Assembly: GCA_963819655.1 (NCBI GenBank)
Contig: CAWFXA010000003.1
Span: forward strand, 512,001 to 576,000
Direction: 5' to 3'
DNA from: an uncultured Chloroflexia bacterium
GTDB taxonomy: Bacteria; Chloroflexota; Limnocylindria; Limnocylindrales; CSP1-4
Length of the DNA: 64,000 bases
The notes under the pieces were generated by a model that saw only the letters and a list, made by a program, of their open reading frames with translations, was not told the DNA's origin and searched no databases. How positions within the stretch are numbered: the stretch's first letter is position 1; the number at the start of each line of letters is the position of its first letter. A program made the position numbers and the translations under genes. Positions 36,330 to 42,632 of the stretch are shown here, in pieces.

Positions 36330-36979
36330 CCGTCGGCCACCTCGGTCTCGTCGACCACATCGCTGATCCCGTGGACCCGCTCGACGACCTCGATGATGGT
36401 GTCCGTGTCCTCGATGCCGTCGACGACTCCACGGATGACGGCGGTCGAGCCGCGAACGCCGATCAGCAGCCGGTCGACCAGCCCCGCGGTCGCGGCATCC
36501 GCCCGCAGAGCCTCGCGGATCCGCGCCGTCAGCTCGGGCTCGCCCGGCAGATCCGACCCACGGTGGTCCTCGTCGTACGGCTCGGACTCGGCCGAGACGG
36601 CGGCGCCGGCCGCGATGATCAGGCCGTCCTCCTCTTCCGGGTCGGCATGGACCGGTGGGTCGATCGGCGGGACGTAGACGAGGCCCTCCTCGGTCGCGAC
36701 GTCGGGGTCGTCGGTCTCGCCCTCACGAAGATCGTCGAGATCGAGGTCATCGAGCACGGCGGCCTCGTCGGCCACGAACGTCGGATCCGGCGGCGAGTCG
36801 CCGCGCTCGAACTCGGTCAGGGTCGGCGTGCGCTCGTGTTCCATCTCGTCGGGCGTGATGACCGCGTCCTGCTCATCGGGCGGCGTGTCGCCCTGGATCT
36901 CGATGACGTCCTCGAGCGGCAGATCGTCCGATGTATCGGCGCCATCGGCGGGCGTGCGTCGCTCGCGTGATTCGGTCAC
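36326..36979 (-). CDS. BON-domain protein with acidic N-terminus
   Basis: C-terminal IREALRAD...IRGVV...GISDVVD BON pattern; GAGGAGG RBS. Confidence 0.8.
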
Positions 36980-37068
36980 TGGGCACCTCCTCGGCTCGAA
37001 GCGTCCGGCCGCGCCCTTGCAGGGACGTCTACCGCCCGTCTCGAACGCTCACGGTATCCTGCAGACAC

Positions 37069-38445
37069 ATGCCCCGCACCCTCATCGATCTCGAACCGCC
37101 GAGCGAGAAGGTCTTCCTCGTCGCCGTCGACACCGGCGCCCAGGACGGCTGGACGGCGCAGGAATTGCTGACCGAGCTCGCGAACCTCGCGACGACGGCC
37201 GGTGCCGACGTCGTTGGCGCCGAATGGCAGAACCGTCGTCATGTCGACCCGAACTGGTACATCGGGAAGGGCAAGGCGGAGGAGCTGGCGTCGGCCAAGC
37301 GCGAGACCGGCTTCGACATCCTGATCGCCGACGACGAGCTGTCGCCGGCGCAGCAGCGTGCCCTCGAGGAGCTGCTGCGCGTCAAGGTCATCGACCGCAG
37401 CCGCCTCATCCTCGACATCTTCGCCCTGCATGCCCAGACCCACGAGGGACGCCTCCAGGTCGAGCTGGCTCAGCTCGAATACCAGCTCCCGCGCCTGACC
37501 AAGCTGTGGACCCACCTGTCGCGGACCCAGGGCGGCATCGGGTCGCGCGGTCCCGGCGAGAGCCAGCTCGAGACCGACCGGCGGATCGTCCGGACGCGGA
37601 TCGCCAAGATGAAGGAGCGCGTCGAGCAGGTCCGCCAGCAGCGCGCGACCGCCGCGCGCGGGCGTGACCGACGGCTGTGGCCGACCGTCGGCATCGTGGG
37701 GTACACGAACGCCGGCAAGTCGACCCTGCTCAATACTCTCGTCGGCTCCGAGGTAGCGCGCGCGGAGGACAAGCTGTTCGCGACGCTCGATCCGACGAGC
37801 CGCCAGGTCAAGCTCGGCGACGGCCAGACGGCGATCGTCACCGACACCGTCGGTTTCATCCACAAGTTGCCCCACCAGCTGGTCGATGCCTTCCGGGCGA
37901 CCCTCGAGGAGGTCAATCGCGCTGACGTGCTGCTCGAGGTCATCGACGCGGCCGACCCGCACGCGGAGGAGCACCGGGCGACGGTCCAGTCCGTTCTCGA
38001 CGAGCTCGGGGCTGGCGACAAGCCGCGCCTCGTGGTGTTCAACAAGGCCGACCTGATCGACCGCGTGGCGACGGATGGAGCGGCGGTCGCCCCGTCGATC
38101 GCTGGTGCCGTGTACGTGTCGGCCCTGACCGGGTTCGGCATGGACACGCTGCGCGCCGAGATCGCGGCGGTCCTCGCCTCGCTGTGGGTCGACGTCGACG
38201 TGGCGCTGCCGTACGCCGCTGGCGAGCTTCTGGCGCGTGTACGGGAGCGCGGGACGATCGACATCGAGTATCGAGAGCACGACGTGCGCGTGCACGGGCG
38301 CGTGGCCCCGTCACTGGCCGGTGAGCTCGATTCTGCGGCTGCCCGCTGGTCCGACGCGTTTGACGGGGATGACGGCTCCGGCGGCAACGGCGCCGACCCG
38401 TCGCTGCCGAGACGATCCGCGGCGGGGCGCCGCACCGCGGGCTGA
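37069..38445 (+). CDS. hflX: GTPase HflX
   Basis: [37 protein letters not shown]. Confidence 0.97.
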
Positions 38446-38455
38446 CGGGGCGGGG

Positions 38456-39022
38456 ATGGCCCCGACCCGACGCGCCGGGCGCGCGACGACGATCGGTGGG
38501 GAGATCCTGACGTGGACCGAAGCCGTGGGGACTCGTGGGACGCGTTGGCGCGAGGCCCTGCAGCGAGACGGGACGCTCATCCGGTCGTTGCTGCTGGAGG
38601 TCTCGGCAGCCGGGCGGCCGACCCGACTCGAGATGACGACCGCGGCCGGGCTGCTCACGCTGCACCCGGAGCCGGACGAGTCGGCGCTGCACGGGAACGT
38701 CGTGAGGGGCGACGGGGTGGACCATCTTGCCTTCGCGTGGAGCGCGGACCATGAGCTGCTGGTCCTCGGATCACCTGCCTCGGCGACGATCGCGCTCCGG
38801 CGGCTCGCAGAACGGATCGTGGTGGGTGCGACATGGCCGCTCGATGTAGTGCGGATCGATGACGCGCTCGAGCCGCGCCCGGCGAGCTGGACGGCGGAGC
38901 GAGTCGCGCGGCATGCGTGGCACCTGCGCACCGTCGACGGCCTCGAGGAGCGCCGCCTCACCGTCGATGATCAAGGCCGGCCAGTGCTGACGGATGCGCT
39001 GACCTGGCCGCTCGAGGCGTGA
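38456..39022 (+). CDS. Hypothetical protein
   Basis: 188-aa ORF directly after hflX with plausible codon usage. Confidence 0.6.
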   Translation: MAPTRRAGRATTIGGEILTWTEAVGTRGTRWREALQRDGTLIRSLLLEVSAAGRPTRLEMTTAAGLLTLHPEPDESALHGNVVRGDGVDHLAFAWSADHELLVLGSPASATIALRRLAERIVVGATWPLDVVRIDDALEPRPASWTAERVARHAWHLRTVDGLEERRLTVDDQGRPVLTDALTWPLEA

Positions 39023-39023
39023 C

Positions 39024-39120
39024 TGTGGGAACCGTGTGGACAACGCTCTCGTTCACGGGATGTTTGCGATGAAAGTCGTGGATAACCGCCTTGTCGCGGT
39101 GATGGCGCGCACCGTATGGT
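39024..39120 (+). promoter_or_regulatory. Unit 1: three DnaA-box-like sites plus sigma70 promoter
   Basis: TGTGGGAAC 39024, TGTGGACAA 39035, CGTGGATAA 39077; TTGTCG-18bp-TATGGT. Confidence 0.65.
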
Positions 39121-39126
39121 TGGTCT

Positions 39127-39220
39127 TGCCCGGAGGGGCCACGGACATCTAGCGATTTGATCGGTGTTTACATTGATCGGAGCGTCTAGTGATCGAGGTT
39201 CCTTCGGGCGTTTTCGTGTG
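39127..39220 (+). ncRNA. Candidate rod-shaped sRNA, copy 1
   Basis: 13-bp closing stem GCCCGGAGGGGCC/GGTTCCTTCGGGC, 11-bp apical stem, TTTTCGT tail. Confidence 0.7.
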
Positions 39221-39256
39221 TCCGGCGTCTGACCGATCCCGCCGCCGCAGACCCGC

Positions 39257-39353
39257 CGTGGATTACCCGTGGATAGTCCAGCTCGACAGAGCCCCGAATC
39301 ACGAAACTCGTGGATAACACCACTTCACAGACCTGAGTCCCACCGGCTACGGT
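39257..39353 (+). promoter_or_regulatory. Unit 2: three DnaA-box-like sites plus sigma70 promoter
   Basis: CGTGGATTA 39257, CGTGGATAG 39268, CGTGGATAA 39309; TTCACA-18bp-TACGGT. Confidence 0.65.
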
Positions 39354-39358
39354 AGTCG

Positions 39359-39453
39359 TGCCCGAAGGGGCCGTGGACTGAAAGCGGCGATACCGGTGTT
39401 CTGCATCGGTGTCGATGGCTACGGACCGGCGGTTCCTTCGGGCGTTTCGTTGT
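39359..39453 (+). ncRNA. Candidate rod-shaped sRNA, copy 2
   Basis: Closing stem GCCCGAAGGGGCC/GGTTCCTTCGGGC, 11-bp apical stem, TTTCGTT tail. Confidence 0.7.
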
Positions 39454-39505
39454 CCGCGGCAGCCCGTGCGGCCAGAGCACGGGATCGCCAGTACCATTCC
39501 TGACC

Positions 39506-41641
39506 GTGGCATCGCCCCCGCCCTCGGACGCCCGCTCATCGTTCCGACCCGACATCGAAGGCCTGCGCGCCGTCGCCGTCCTGCTGGTCCTCGCGTATCA
39601 CGCGCGCGTGCCCGGCCTGACCGGCGGCTACATCGGCGTCGACGTCTTCTACGTCGTGTCGGGCTTCCTCATCACCGGGCTGATCGTCCGCGAGCTCCAG
39701 GCGACCGGCCGGCTCGACCTGCCGGCCTTCTATGCGCGACGCGCGCGCCGCTTGCTGCCCGCGGCCCTCGTCGTGATCGCCGTGACGGTCCTTGCGTCGG
39801 CAGTCATCCTGCCGCCGCTGCGCATGGTCGACGTCGCCGGCGATGGCGCGGCCGCCGCCCTGTACGTGAGCAACATCCGGTTCGCGGCGCAGGCGACCGA
39901 CTACCTCCAGGCCGAGCTCGACCCGTCGCCGCTGCTGCATTTCTGGTCGCTCGGGGTCGAGGAGCAGTTCTACCTGTTCTGGCCGGCCCTCCTGTTCGCG
40001 GTCGCCGGCCGCCGGACGAGCGTGCGGCGGATCGGGATCGCGATCGCCGTCGTGGCCGCAGTGTCGCTGGTGCTGTCGATCGTGTGGACGTCGACCGACG
40101 CGCCCTTGGCGTTCTTCCTCCTGCCGGCCCGTGCCTGGGAGCTGGCTGTCGGGGCCGGGTTGGCGCTCGCCGCGACCCGGATCGCGCGGATCCCGGCGTT
40201 GGCCGCCACGGCGGCGGTCGTGGTCGGCCTGGCCCTCATCGGCATCGGCGCGGTGATCTTCGACCTTGCGACACCGTTCCCGGGGACCGCGGCCCTGGTC
40301 CCGGTGGCCGGCGCCGCCCTGGTGATCGCAGGCGGTCTGCGCCAGCCGCTCGGGCCGATCTCGCGGCTCGTGGCGATCCCACCGATGCGCTGGATCGGCG
40401 GCATCTCCTATTCGCTGTACCTGTGGCACTGGCCGTTGCTCGTGCTTCCGGCGGCGGCCGTTGGGGCGCCGTTGCCCGGCCCGGTCCGGCTCGCGCTCGT
40501 CGGGCTCACGTTCGTCCTCGCCGAAGCCAGCCGCCGCTGGGTCGAGGACCCGATCCGGCACGGGCAGATCTCGAAACTCAGGCCGTCGCGCTCGCTCGCC
40601 GCGGCCGGTGCGATCAGCCTGGTGGTCGCGGGCGTCTCGCTCGGGGCGGGTCGCCTCGCTGCTCCGCCGCAGCTCGCCGCCGCCACCGGCGGGCCCGTCG
40701 AGCTCGACCTGCCGACGCCGCTCCCTGGCCCGACTGACGCCCCGCGGGTCACGCCATCCGCGGGTGCGACACAGACCCCGAGTGCGACACCGACGCCTGT
40801 GATCGATCCCACCCGTGCCCCGACCGCTGGCGGCCCCGTCCCGGGCGACCTCGTGCCGTCGCTGGCCGCCGTGCGTGACGACATCCCGGTCATCTATGCC
40901 GACGCCTGTCACGCCGAGTCGCGCGAGACGCAGCCGCCGGCCTGCGTGTACGGCGAGGCCGGTTCGTCGACGTCCGTGTACCTCATCGGCGACTCGCACG
41001 CCGCGCACTGGTTCCCCACGTTCGAGCGGCTGGCGAGCGAACGTGGCTGGCGGCTCGTCTCGCTCACGAAATCCGCCTGCCCGGTGGCCGACCTGCGCGT
41101 CTACAACGCGAGCCTCAAGCGCGAGTATGTCGAATGCACCGATTGGCGCGCGGCTGTCCTGCAGCGCATCGCCGACGAACGCCCTGCGCTCGTGGTGATC
41201 TCGGACAGTCGGGCGGGCAAGCTGTGGAATGATGGCACGCCGGTCGACACGACCGACCGGGAGGACCTGTGGGCGGCCGGTCTCGGCCGCGCGATCCGCG
41301 CGATCGACGAGGTCGCCGATCATGTGCTCGTCCTCGGCGACACGCCGAATCCCCTCGGCGATCCGCCGGTGTGCCTGTCGGACCACCTCGATGACGCCCT
41401 CGCCTGCGCGACCCCGACCTCGAAGGCCCTTGCGCCGCGACGGACTGCCACGGAGCGCGAGGTCAGCGCCGCGAGCGGCGCGACGTTCGTCGATCCGAGC
41501 CCGTGGCTGTGCCCGACCGAGCCGTGCCCGGCGATCATCGGGCGCGTGCTGGTGTACCGCGACGGCCACCACATGACGACGCCGTTCGCGTCGGCTCTCG
41601 CCCCATACCTCGAGCCGTTGCTGCCGGCCCTGCCGGGCTGA
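39506..41641 (+). CDS. Acyltransferase-3 + SGNH O-acyltransferase (OafA/YrhL-like)
   Basis: RPDIEGLRAVAV, HFWSLGVEEQFY, GDSHA, DGHH. Confidence 0.95.
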   Translation: MASPPPSDARSSFRPDIEGLRAVAVLLVLAYHARVPGLTGGYIGVDVFYVVSGFLITGLIVRELQATGRLDLPAFYARRARRLLPAALVVIAVTVLASAVILPPLRMVDVAGDGAAAALYVSNIRFAAQATDYLQAELDPSPLLHFWSLGVEEQFYLFWPALLFAVAGRRTSVRRIGIAIAVVAAVSLVLSIVWTSTDAPLAFFLLPARAWELAVGAGLALAATRIARIPALAATAAVVVGLALIGIGAVIFDLATPFPGTAALVPVAGAALVIAGGLRQPLGPISRLVAIPPMRWIGGISYSLYLWHWPLLVLPAAAVGAPLPGPVRLALVGLTFVLAEASRRWVEDPIRHGQISKLRPSRSLAAAGAISLVVAGVSLGAGRLAAPPQLAAATGGPVELDLPTPLPGPTDAPRVTPSAGATQTPSATPTPVIDPTRAPTAGGPVPGDLVPSLAAVRDDIPVIYADACHAESRETQPPACVYGEAGSSTSVYLIGDSHAAHWFPTFERLASERGWRLVSLTKSACPVADLRVYNASLKREYVECTDWRAAVLQRIADERPALVVISDSRAGKLWNDGTPVDTTDREDLWAAGLGRAIRAIDEVADHVLVLGDTPNPLGDPPVCLSDHLDDALACATPTSKALAPRRTATEREVSAASGATFVDPSPWLCPTEPCPAIIGRVLVYRDGHHMTTPFASALAPYLEPLLPALPG

Positions 41642-41666
41642 CCGACCGGCGTGGCATCATCGCCCG

Positions 41667-42632
41667 ATGCGTGATGCCCTCGTCGCCGTCTCGGAGCTGA
41701 CGCCTGAAGCCATCCTCACGGCATCGGCCGCGATCGATCCGGTGTTCAGGGATTCGCCCCAGTTCGTCCACGACGGGTTGTCCGCGCAGCTCGGTGTGCC
41801 GGTCGTGGTCAAGGTCGAGACCGTCAACCCGATCCGCTCGTTCAAGGGTCGCGGTACGTGGGTCGCCGTGCACGGCCTGGTAGGGGAGGGGAGGATCGGA
41901 CCGGACCGGCCGATCGTGGTGGCGTCGGCCGGCAACTTCGGGCAGGGCGTCGCCTACGCCGCTCGCGCCATCGACGTCCCCGCGGTCGTGTTCACGTCGC
42001 GCAACGCCAATCGGGCCAAGATCGCGCGGATGCGCGCGCTGGGCGCGACGGTGTTCGAGTCGGGGGAGGACTTCGACGACGCCCGGACGGCCTCGGAGGC
42101 GTATGCCGCCGAGCATCGGGCCGAAATACTGGTCGACGGCGACGACCCACGCATCTCGACCGGGGCCGCCACGCTGGCGCTCGAGCTCACCGACGCCATC
42201 GAGACCGGCGTCCTGCCGGGGCTGACGATCGCATCGGTGCCTGTCGGGAACGGCGCCCTGATCAACGGGGTCGGCTCGTGGCTCCGGCACGCATCGCCGG
42301 CGACCCGCATCGTCGGAGTCCAGGCGGAGGTGGCCGACGCTATGACCCGCTCGTTCGCGGCAGGCCGGCCGATCGACACGGCGTCCGCCGCCACCTACGC
42401 CGACGGCATCGCGTCGCGCATCGCGGTGCCGCGCGCGGTCGAGCTCATGGCGGGGCGGGTCGATGCCATGCTGACCGTCAGCGAGGACGCCTTGCGTGGG
42501 GCACAGGCCGAACTGACCGACGCGCTCGGCATAACGATCGAGGGTGCGGCCGCGGCGTCGTGGGCCGGCCTATTGGCCGGCCCGCCACCGGATGGTCCGG
42601 CGCTCATCATCATCACCGGCAGCAACGTCTGA
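41667..42632 (+). CDS. PLP-dependent threonine/serine dehydratase family protein
   Basis: SFKGRG, SAGNFG, PVGNG, TGSN. Confidence 0.9.
   Translation: MRDALVAVSELTPEAILTASAAIDPVFRDSPQFVHDGLSAQLGVPVVVKVETVNPIRSFKGRGTWVAVHGLVGEGRIGPDRPIVVASAGNFGQGVAYAARAIDVPAVVFTSRNANRAKIARMRALGATVFESGEDFDDARTASEAYAAEHRAEILVDGDDPRISTGAATLALELTDAIETGVLPGLTIASVPVGNGALINGVGSWLRHASPATRIVGVQAEVADAMTRSFAAGRPIDTASAATYADGIASRIAVPRAVELMAGRVDAMLTVSEDALRGAQAELTDALGITIEGAAAASWAGLLAGPPPDGPALIIITGSNV

Follow-up and report, generated by a model that had tools for sequence, protein, structure and literature searches.

Probable Small-RNA Genes Between an ORF Downstream of hflX and an Acyltransferase Gene

The window analyzed here, a stretch of 64,000 nucleotides (nt) from an uncultured Limnocylindria bacterium (Chloroflexota), corresponds to positions 512001-576000 of contig C3 in a genome of 3.49 Mb (G000; 69% G+C, three contigs, 91.25% complete). 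Window positions 39023-39505 form a non-coding gap between a 188-aa open reading frame (ORF) downstream of hflX and the gene for an AT3+SGNH acyltransferase. Two look-alike units lie in this gap, each with a long hairpin at its end, A at 39128-39209 and B at 39360-39443. We conclude, with a probability of roughly 0.9, that A and B are real, co-oriented small-RNA genes, and that they are paralog types of an undescribed, multi-copy RNA family of Limnocylindria. The predicted features of the two genes, all on the plus strand and in window coordinates, are as follows.

39035..39043, +: TGTGGACAA, the distal promoter box of gene A, lying about 92 nt ahead of the RNA start; matches the family consensus
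39076..39085, +: proximal promoter box of gene A, TCGTGGATAA, placed by family counts
39091-39096 and 39115-39120, +: core promoter of gene A, consisting of a -35-like TTGTCG and the -10 element TATGGT, the latter preceding the RNA's first G by 7 nt
39128..39216, +: small RNA A (type A), an 82-nt hairpin (39128-39209) plus the tail GUUUUCG; 13-bp closing stem, helix CA(U)CUAG(U)G in which two U bulge symmetrically, 11-bp upper stem, UUUA loop
39257-39265 and 39268-39276, +: two distal promoter boxes of gene B, CGTGGATTA and CGTGGATAG, corresponding to the family positions -103 and -92
39308..39317, +: proximal promoter box of gene B, TCGTGGATAA, placed by family counts
39348..39353, +: TACGGT, the -10 element of gene B, which precedes the RNA's first G by 6 nt
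39360..39449, +: small RNA B (type B), an 84-nt hairpin (39360-39443) plus the tail GUUUCG; 12-bp closing stem, conserved internal loop CCG-AAAG-C / G-(A/G)CUA-CGG, covarying upper stem, apical loop

Fold of RNAs A and B

Each entire RNA is a single hairpin of about 35 bp. The closing stem is GCCCGRAGGGGC / GTTCCTTCGGGC; at the RNA ends, GCCCGRAGGGGC makes up the first 12-13 nt and pairs with GUUCCUUCGGGC, the last 12-13 nt, an invariant tandem G-U included, and GUUU(U/C) follows directly (GTTTTCG in A, GTTTCG in B). A sequence-only reading of the window had already drawn a hairpin in each unit. The hairpins are real, and the two apical stems it named are correct in every pair: TTTGATCGGTG / CATTGATCGGA with loop TTTA in copy A (11 of 11 pairs, four of them G-U) and CGATACCGGTG / CATCGGTGTCG with loop TTCTG in copy B (11 of 11 pairs, two of them G-U), with CGGTG-TT..CAT common to both copies. 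The hairpins are longer than it described, as the whole RNA takes part in one fold. When stretches of 106 nt were folded, the plus strand reached -48.5 kcal/mol for A (z -4.44) and -60.0 kcal/mol for B (z -5.34), with none of 200 shuffles as good in either case, vs. only -30.9 kcal/mol (A, z -3.10) and -37.4 kcal/mol (B, z -2.06) for the minus strands.

From base to tip, the RNAs consist of the conserved closing stem, a short covarying spacer helix, a middle motif that is type-specific and near-invariant, a freely covarying upper helix, and the apical hairpin. Blocks conserved in sequence are helical and internal-loop modules with freely covarying helices on either side. In type A a near-palindrome, CA(U)CUAG(U)G, serves as the middle motif; it pairs with its own copy on the opposite arm and leaves one bulged U per strand in two-fold symmetry, and both arms contain CAUCUAGUGAUC. 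The arms of type B contain GACCGAAAGC and GACUACGGACC, and here CCG-AAAG-C facing G-(A/G)CUA-CGG forms the middle motif, a 4x4 internal loop with an A-A mismatch beneath. In one type B ortholog (locus L044) AGUA stands opposite GAA, which, as a lead only, may be the bulged-G (sarcin-ricin / loop E) consensus.

The apical hairpin is GGUG-YUUR-CAUY, or GAUG-CAAA-UC in one subgroup; these are presumably stable tetraloops of the CUUG and GNRA types. Only loops of 4-5 nt and small bulges are unpaired in the consensus folds, with no unpaired stretch longer than 5 nt. Wobble pairs keep fixed places even though the genome is G+C-rich: among 46 type A sequences, G-U occupies two closing-stem positions in 39 and 43 of the 46, and G-U or U-G occupies two apical positions in 37 and 43.

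Covariation Across Orthologs

Three alignment sets were scored for pairing: type A within the genus, found by BLAST (n = 12), type B (n = 21), and type A more widely, covering two families of the class (n = 46). The widest set (alignment A6) is made up of window copy A, 38 rows chosen for CTAGTGATC in the 3' arm with at most one mismatch (7 from genus loci and 31 from loci of a class-wide pattern scan), four matches of the covariance model R1 from the family f4, and three genus rows with variant closing stems. Results for the three sets are given below; in the last entry of each line, pairing partners were slid out of register.

Type A, genus (n = 12): 35 model pairs; 96.7% of cells paired; 11 pairs (19 cells) changed on both sides; 0/500 shuffles as good (9/500 for further pair types); 33.6-45.5% paired after sliding
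Type B (n = 21): 30 model pairs; 97.6% of cells paired; 11 pairs (31 cells) changed on both sides; 0/500 shuffles as good; 32.7-49.8% paired after sliding
Type A, wider (n = 46): 35 model pairs; 97.9% of cells paired; 16 pairs (91 cells) changed on both sides; 0/500 shuffles as good; at most 46.6% paired after sliding

The closing stem, where it varies, varies in a compensatory manner, with GAAGAGGC / GUCUCUUC at locus L025 and, in individual rows, U-A at the third and fourth pairs. In the family f4 the first closing pair is U-A in place of G-C, and the remaining stem is unchanged. The middle motifs are near-invariant in sequence despite being helical, and the helices adjoining them covary.

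G-U or U-G cells account for 283 of the 1594 paired cells in type A and 122 of the 624 in type B, or about 18-20%, and each would be a mismatch on the opposite strand. Together with the much poorer folds of the minus strand, these counts bear out the earlier view that the structure belongs to plus-strand RNA and not to a DNA cruciform. Likewise, the fold is kept by compensatory changes and G-U pairs, as had been argued from copy A vs. copy B, and the orthologs demonstrate this better than those two copies do. The plus-strand RNA hairpins are maintained by selection.

Promoters

Among 142 family units, 141 have a TAnnnT word between -22 and -5, and 127 have TCGTGGATAA with at most two mismatches (66/66 of type B, 27/41 of type A, and 34/35 of other types). 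This box ends 41-43 nt ahead of the first G of the RNA in 125 of the 127 units that bear it. Its exact form occurs five times in the 3.49-Mb genome, four times upstream of family RNAs, and the reversed control does not occur at all. The word GTGGAYA was counted by position in the 139 units whose upstream sequence extends to 160 nt, and starts cluster at -51..-49 (115 units), -93..-90 (95 units) and -104..-101 (29 units). The words all share one orientation, no position having three or more reversed words, and 104 of the 139 units contain two or more boxes. Around -92 the consensus is TGTGGACAA, with T preceding the core in 77 and A following it in 86 of 95 units.

Because the -10 element lies 6-7 nt before the first G, we infer that transcription starts at the first base of the closing stem. 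The conserved boxes establish A and B as independent predicted genes, each with its own copy of a shared and strongly conserved promoter at a fixed distance. For the same reason the two hairpins do not reduce to a mere terminator of upstream transcription, the outcome that the sequence-only reading had named as fatal to its proposal.

The same promoter type (TCGTGGACAA, TTGACG, TACGGT) also precedes a leader of about 190 nt and rsmG/GidB (PF02527) in this genome, at C2:398420 (L180:1021-1075). The word TTATCCACC is found 30 nt upstream.

Resemblance of the Promoter Boxes to DnaA Boxes

The distal-box consensus TGTGGACAA is the reverse complement of TTGTCCACA, the DnaA box of high-G+C Gram-positives. 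The proximal box CGTGGATAA agrees with TGTGGATAA at eight of nine positions. Exact TTGTCCACA occurs 4 times genome-wide vs. 8.5 expected, and TTATCCACA 2 times vs. 3.8 expected; two of the six exact DnaA-box 9-mers in the genome sit at family promoters. The dnaA gene (C2:468761-470578, minus strand) has only one box-like word within about 3.5 kb, and no recognizable cluster of canonical DnaA boxes was seen in the dnaA-rpmH-rnpA-yidD-yidC region. Nowhere in the genome do 500 bp contain as many as four relaxed boxes, and all three contigs show a weak GC skew without a clear minimum. Given the lack of a box cluster, the weak skew and the rarity of exact 9-mers, the replication origin could not be placed, nor could the host's own box consensus be derived.

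Four DnaA-box-like words (CTATCCACC, TGTGGACAA, CGTGGATGA and CGTGGACAA) occur within about 45 bp at C3:98628-98670 (L181:1028-1070). Downstream of them are a TAGGAT -10-like word, a leader of about 200 nt, and an ORF without a Pfam match.

That the promoter boxes are true DnaA boxes is a speculative proposal that we consider doubtful. It would mean that in Limnocylindria the replication initiator is wired directly to a regulon consisting almost wholly of sealed hairpin RNAs, which would act as modular protein-binding scaffolds or decoys with a different module per type on a common chassis. If true, this would be an RNA output arm of DnaA, for which there is no described counterpart.

The RNA Family and Its Distribution

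The genome was searched with the window DNA and then with short motifs. Three further units with the same closing words and upstream sequence were found, at C2:63800-63873, C2:1280719-1280793 and C2:1026679-1026862, giving at least five members with a common promoter and closing stem. The first two belong to a third paralog type of 66-75 nt with the apical sequence GAGAU-NN-CAUCAA, which is also present at eight loci of the family f4 (L185-L187, L190-L194) and so occurs in both RNA-positive families, f1 and f4. The unit at C2:1026679-1026862 (L002:1330-1513) is a 184-nt member in which the box promoter and closing stem go with a branched interior (-110.3 kcal/mol, z -6.7); it is flanked by a Rieske/DUF2231 gene on the minus strand and an MFS gene. 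Both units of locus L048 (G013:C310) are also longer members, of 114-117 nt, with two apical GGUGCUUGCAUC hairpins per RNA.

Within the genus, homologs turned up in all 24 genomes covered by a DNA search. With one genome taken per species, a pattern scan yielded at least 125 loci, most of them from metagenome-assembled genomes of Chloroflexota / Candidatus Limnocylindria. The few matches in other phyla are probably due to chance, since the pattern has only 20 fixed bases. Typical units were seen on two contigs labelled Bryobacteraceae and Verrucomicrobiia, which may be binning errors.

The covariance model R1, built from 129 units, scores RNA A at 86.7 bits and RNA B at 89.4 bits, and recovers four of the five members in the source genome. 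It matches 93 of the 151 sampled genomes of the class, G000 counted. The matches by family, which leave G000 out and take in three genomes flagged as unpublished (G156, G122 and G131), are:

f1: 42/44
f4: 50/50
f2 (genomes of about 1.1 Mb): 0/6
f3: 0/49
f5: 0/1

Judged by these matches, and as far as the searches reached, the RNA family is confined to part of one class, Limnocylindria.

Neighboring Genes

Four protein-coding genes frame the two RNA genes in the window:

36931-38445: hflX; the 188-aa ORF comes directly after it
38456..39022, +: 188-aa ORF, the upstream neighbor, outside the RNA genes; 38456 is a chosen start
39506..41641, +: AT3+SGNH acyltransferase, the downstream neighbor, outside the RNA genes; Pfam PF01757 and PF19040
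41667-42632: PALP enzyme gene, this genome's own copy, following the acyltransferase gene

The order in the genus, determined by tblastn on 29 loci, is hflX - ORF - A - B - PALP. Among these 29 loci hflX was found at 20, the ORF at 19, PALP at 17 and the acyltransferase at 2. Judged by this gene order, the A-B locus is inherited vertically within the genus, and the acyltransferase gene, present at only 2 of the 29 loci between RNA B and PALP, looks like a local insertion into a conserved locus. At the class-wide loci (at least 125, with flanks of 300 nt only) the counts are 31 for PALP, 13 for the ORF, 5 for the acyltransferase and 2 for hflX.

The acyltransferase gene starts 62 nt past the end of RNA B, and PALP starts 27-54 nt after RNA B at the four loci with a placeable start (L029, L035, L042 and L043). 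CATGAT or CATCAT stands 6 nt ahead of the PALP start codon at L042, at L043 and in this genome (window 41641-41670). In f4, type A ends 28-34 nt ahead of a TMEM175-like gene whose ATG is preceded, at 6 nt, by TAGCAT (L196, L197). These words suggest that the genes behind the small RNAs have their own promoter and a leaderless mRNA, squeezed directly behind the RNA terminators. Other copies in this genome lie farther from the next gene, a PNP_UDP_1 phosphorylase gene at 175 nt and an MFS gene at 290 nt.

The 188-aa ORF was considered as a partner of the RNAs and set aside. It has no Pfam match, and its nearest ESM Atlas clusters, which score 0.97 and are PF06475-like (glycolipid-binding; the domain is on 13-46% of members), give no sign of RNA binding.

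Searches for Known Families and Partners

Searching window positions 38000-40500 against Rfam 15 (4227 families) with E-values up to 10 returned only two chance microRNA matches, both outside the hairpins. Other family loci, including the 184-nt member, had no Rfam 15 match, and 6S RNA (RF00013) had none either genome-wide or at the 184-nt member. In full-text literature searches on Limnocylindria RNA and Chloroflexi small RNAs, the titles and abstract openings contained no description of the family, nor any work on regulatory RNAs of Limnocylindria. Among 24 runs, three RNA libraries contained 6-11% of the sampled words, and against the window they yielded assembled contigs only. Overlapping ORFs are present at the hairpins and look like chance products of a genome with 69% G+C, in agreement with the earlier statement that there is no peptide ORF inside.

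In the 91.25%-complete genome there were no matches to CsrA (PF02599), TROVE/Ro60 (PF05731) or Hfq (PF17209); the same searches were positive in three control genomes for CsrA and in two for TROVE. The genome has one ORF with a dsRNA-binding domain, presumed to be RNase III. When it was searched for complementary words outside the RNA genes, three of the four conserved motifs had no exact match, and a 10-nt word of the B 5' arm had three. The best near match, 12 nt to the genome's own A arm across the stop codon of an unrelated gene, is within chance. No convincing target emerged, although the three exact matches of the B 5'-arm word were not looked into.

GGA words number one or two per RNA and are mostly paired in the consensus folds. 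The GGAC words that the sequence-only reading had pointed out are present at 39141 (ACGGAC), 39373 (GTGGAC) and 39421 (ACGGAC), but they are mostly paired and do not lie in internal loops, where it had put them. Only the 3'-arm ACGGACC of type B is conserved; in 37 of the 46 type A sequences, an A stands in place of the G of the 5'-arm GGA (column 17).

Mode of Action and Alternatives

In each gene a fixed promoter, with as many as three GTGGAYA boxes in one orientation (around -103, -92 and -50) and a TAnnnT -10 element, precedes a hairpin of 82-84 nt, and GUUU(U/C) comes directly after its closing stem. On the reading that fits best, the closing stem would double as an intrinsic terminator, and with both ends sealed the RNAs would be very stable. 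A single box-binding transcription factor may switch on the whole family together. The RNAs would then bind protein, as scaffolds or decoys, rather than mRNAs by base-pairing. On this model the middle motifs would be type-specific binding sites, a symmetric bulged helix in A and a 4x4 internal loop in B, and the shared closing stem would serve stability, termination and perhaps a common partner. Protein binding is suggested by invariant modules amid covarying helices, the symmetric type A helix, the kept wobbles, the duplicated apical hairpins, and the lack of both a seed and Hfq. We put this mode of action at about even odds; the protein-binding or decoy RNA that was first proposed is, in that general form, plausible.

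Several points weigh against this account. No conserved neighboring gene points to a partner protein, and five f4 loci have no flanking genes in common with the window locus. The sequences compared are related, by which the shuffle controls overstate significance, and the class-wide invariance of the closing stem is in good part by construction, as the search pattern demanded those words. The U-run is short (3-4 U), making read-through into downstream genes possible, and RNA B, like type A in f4, lies only 27-62 nt before a co-directional gene, which would fit a leader role too. Finally, the sole evidence from RNA libraries is an assembled 472-nt contig (depth 43, from a 92%-identical relative) that covers about 39295-39635 and extends beyond B into the gene that follows. 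A discrete small RNA cannot be read from it, nor can ends, strand or level; it could be DNA carry-over, and we count it as evidence neither way.

Among other explanations, the RNAs could be trans-acting, base-pairing small RNAs that work once their hairpin has been opened, or cleaved by an enzyme such as RNase III, so that the conserved arms can pair with mRNAs. They do have their own promoter and terminator, as classical small RNAs do, as well as conserved arms (CAUCUAGUGAUC on both arms of type A, GACUACGGACC in type B), and the presumed RNase III ORF is at hand. Nearly all of the RNA is self-paired, however, with no single-stranded seed, Hfq was not found in the 91%-complete genome, and the search for complementary words left three of four motifs without an exact match (the B 5'-arm word has three) and the best near match within chance; we regard base-pairing as unlikely. 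A cis-acting role, either as a promoter and 5' hairpin leader with partial read-through or as a terminator shielding a downstream leaderless promoter, appears rather improbable. It is favored by the closeness of B to the acyltransferase gene here (62 nt) and to PALP in four relatives (27-54 nt), by that of type A to the TMEM175-like gene in f4 (28-34 nt), by the short U-run, and by the RNA-library contig that continues from B into the next gene. Against it, the downstream genes vary by copy (PALP, acyltransferase, TMEM175-like, PNP_UDP_1 phosphorylase, MFS), which makes a metabolite- or gene-specific riboswitch unlikely; A is followed by the promoter of B and not by a gene; and copies C and E are separated from the next gene by 175 and 290 nt. 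Furthermore, a -10-like word of its own stands 6 nt before the downstream start codon, in f4 and at PALP, including here, where PALP no longer follows B. As the whole RNA is a single hairpin, there is also no alternative antiterminator fold. B as a leader of the PALP gene in particular was rejected as unlikely, given the varying downstream genes and PALP's own -10-like word.

The units could also be DNA-level elements with an incidental transcript, such as a MITE-like palindromic repeat with 12-bp terminal inverted repeats or a protein site of the DnaA-titrating type. Their 12-nt ends are indeed mutually inverted repeats, each nearly palindromic, they are multi-copy, and DnaA-box-like words lie upstream. 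Yet the 18-20% of cells that are G-U pair only in plus-strand RNA, compensatory changes keep the RNA pairs, and the locus is syntenic across the genus instead of scattered, with the -10 element at a fixed distance, all of which makes a DNA element very unlikely. Least credible is a decoy RNA of the CsrA or Ro60 type. The sequence-only reading had offered a CsrA-type site and suggested checking the genome for csrA or Ro60, and there are a few A(N)GGA words as well as a closing stem reminiscent of Y RNAs, in which the 5' and 3' ends likewise pair. Both ideas fail in that neither CsrA nor TROVE is matched in a 91%-complete genome searched alongside positive controls, the GGA words, few in number and mostly paired, show no conservation in type A, and there is no Rfam match to Y RNA, CsrB or Rsm.

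Significance

Limnocylindria are abundant, uncultured soil and freshwater bacteria. The RNA family is likely to be a major regulatory or ribonucleoprotein system in them, as indicated by the strong covariation, the dedicated conserved promoter, the several types per genome, and the presence in two whole families. For annotation of the Rfam kind there is now one more family, for which alignments A3 and A6 can serve as seeds and R1 as the covariance model. Experiments gain handles in the box-binding factor, possibly DnaA, and in two well-defined RNA motifs.

Comparison With Known Systems

Sibling small RNAs under a shared activator site include RsmX/Y/Z and CsrB/C under GacA/UvrY, GlmY/GlmZ, and Qrr1-5. 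The present family is like them in having several paralogous genes per genome, each with its own terminator and with common upstream boxes at a fixed distance, and in the tandem arrangement of paralogs. Unlike them, it lacks GGA-loop repeats, and searches of the genome found neither a CsrA nor a Hfq gene; where CsrB and RsmZ expose many GGA in loops and linkers, the few GGA here are mostly paired. The paralogs also differ in the middle motif, with the promoter, closing stem and apical hairpin alone in common, and the predicted activator box resembles a DnaA box, not a GacA or sigma-54 activator site. A Hfq-dependent base-pairing small RNA would differ in having a single-stranded seed, and a plain terminator of an upstream operon would have neither the conserved box and -10 element at a fixed distance nor, as B does, another such RNA in front of it instead of a gene.

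The RNAs of several ribonucleoproteins are panhandles with paired 5' and 3' ends, such as Y RNA with Ro60, the 4.5S RNA of the signal recognition particle (SRP), and 6S RNA. The family shares with these a conserved stem that seals the ends, a short U tail at the 3' end, conserved modules between covarying helices, and a length of about 80-190 nt. It differs in that no TROVE gene and no Rfam match to Y RNA, SRP RNA or 6S RNA were found, and in having no central bubble or tRNA-like domain. In Y RNAs the terminal stem carries a conserved bulged helix that binds Ro, and a Ro60 gene usually lies nearby; A and B have a conserved terminal stem without an Rfam match to Y RNA, and their neighbors are hflX, the PF06475-like ORF and the acyltransferase gene. 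6S RNA is a rod of about 180 nt built around a large central bubble, and A and B, at 82-84 nt, have no such bubble.

Antiterminators of the LicT/SacY type bind as dimers to RAT hairpins, which overlap a separate terminator and control one operon. Type A, and only this type, resembles RAT in its quasi-symmetric helix with symmetric bulges on both arms, as would be expected for recognition by a homodimer, but its motif sits inside a free-standing hairpin RNA. Weinberg and colleagues reportedly found, in 2010, orphan structured bacterial RNA motifs by comparative genomics. Like such orphans, this family is lineage-restricted, supported by covariation, independently transcribed by prediction, and without an assigned function; unlike them, it lies outside Rfam 15 and is a multi-type family with a dedicated promoter. 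What would be new relative to known sibling small RNAs under one upstream site is the combination of a sealed, whole-molecule hairpin chassis with type-specific modules.

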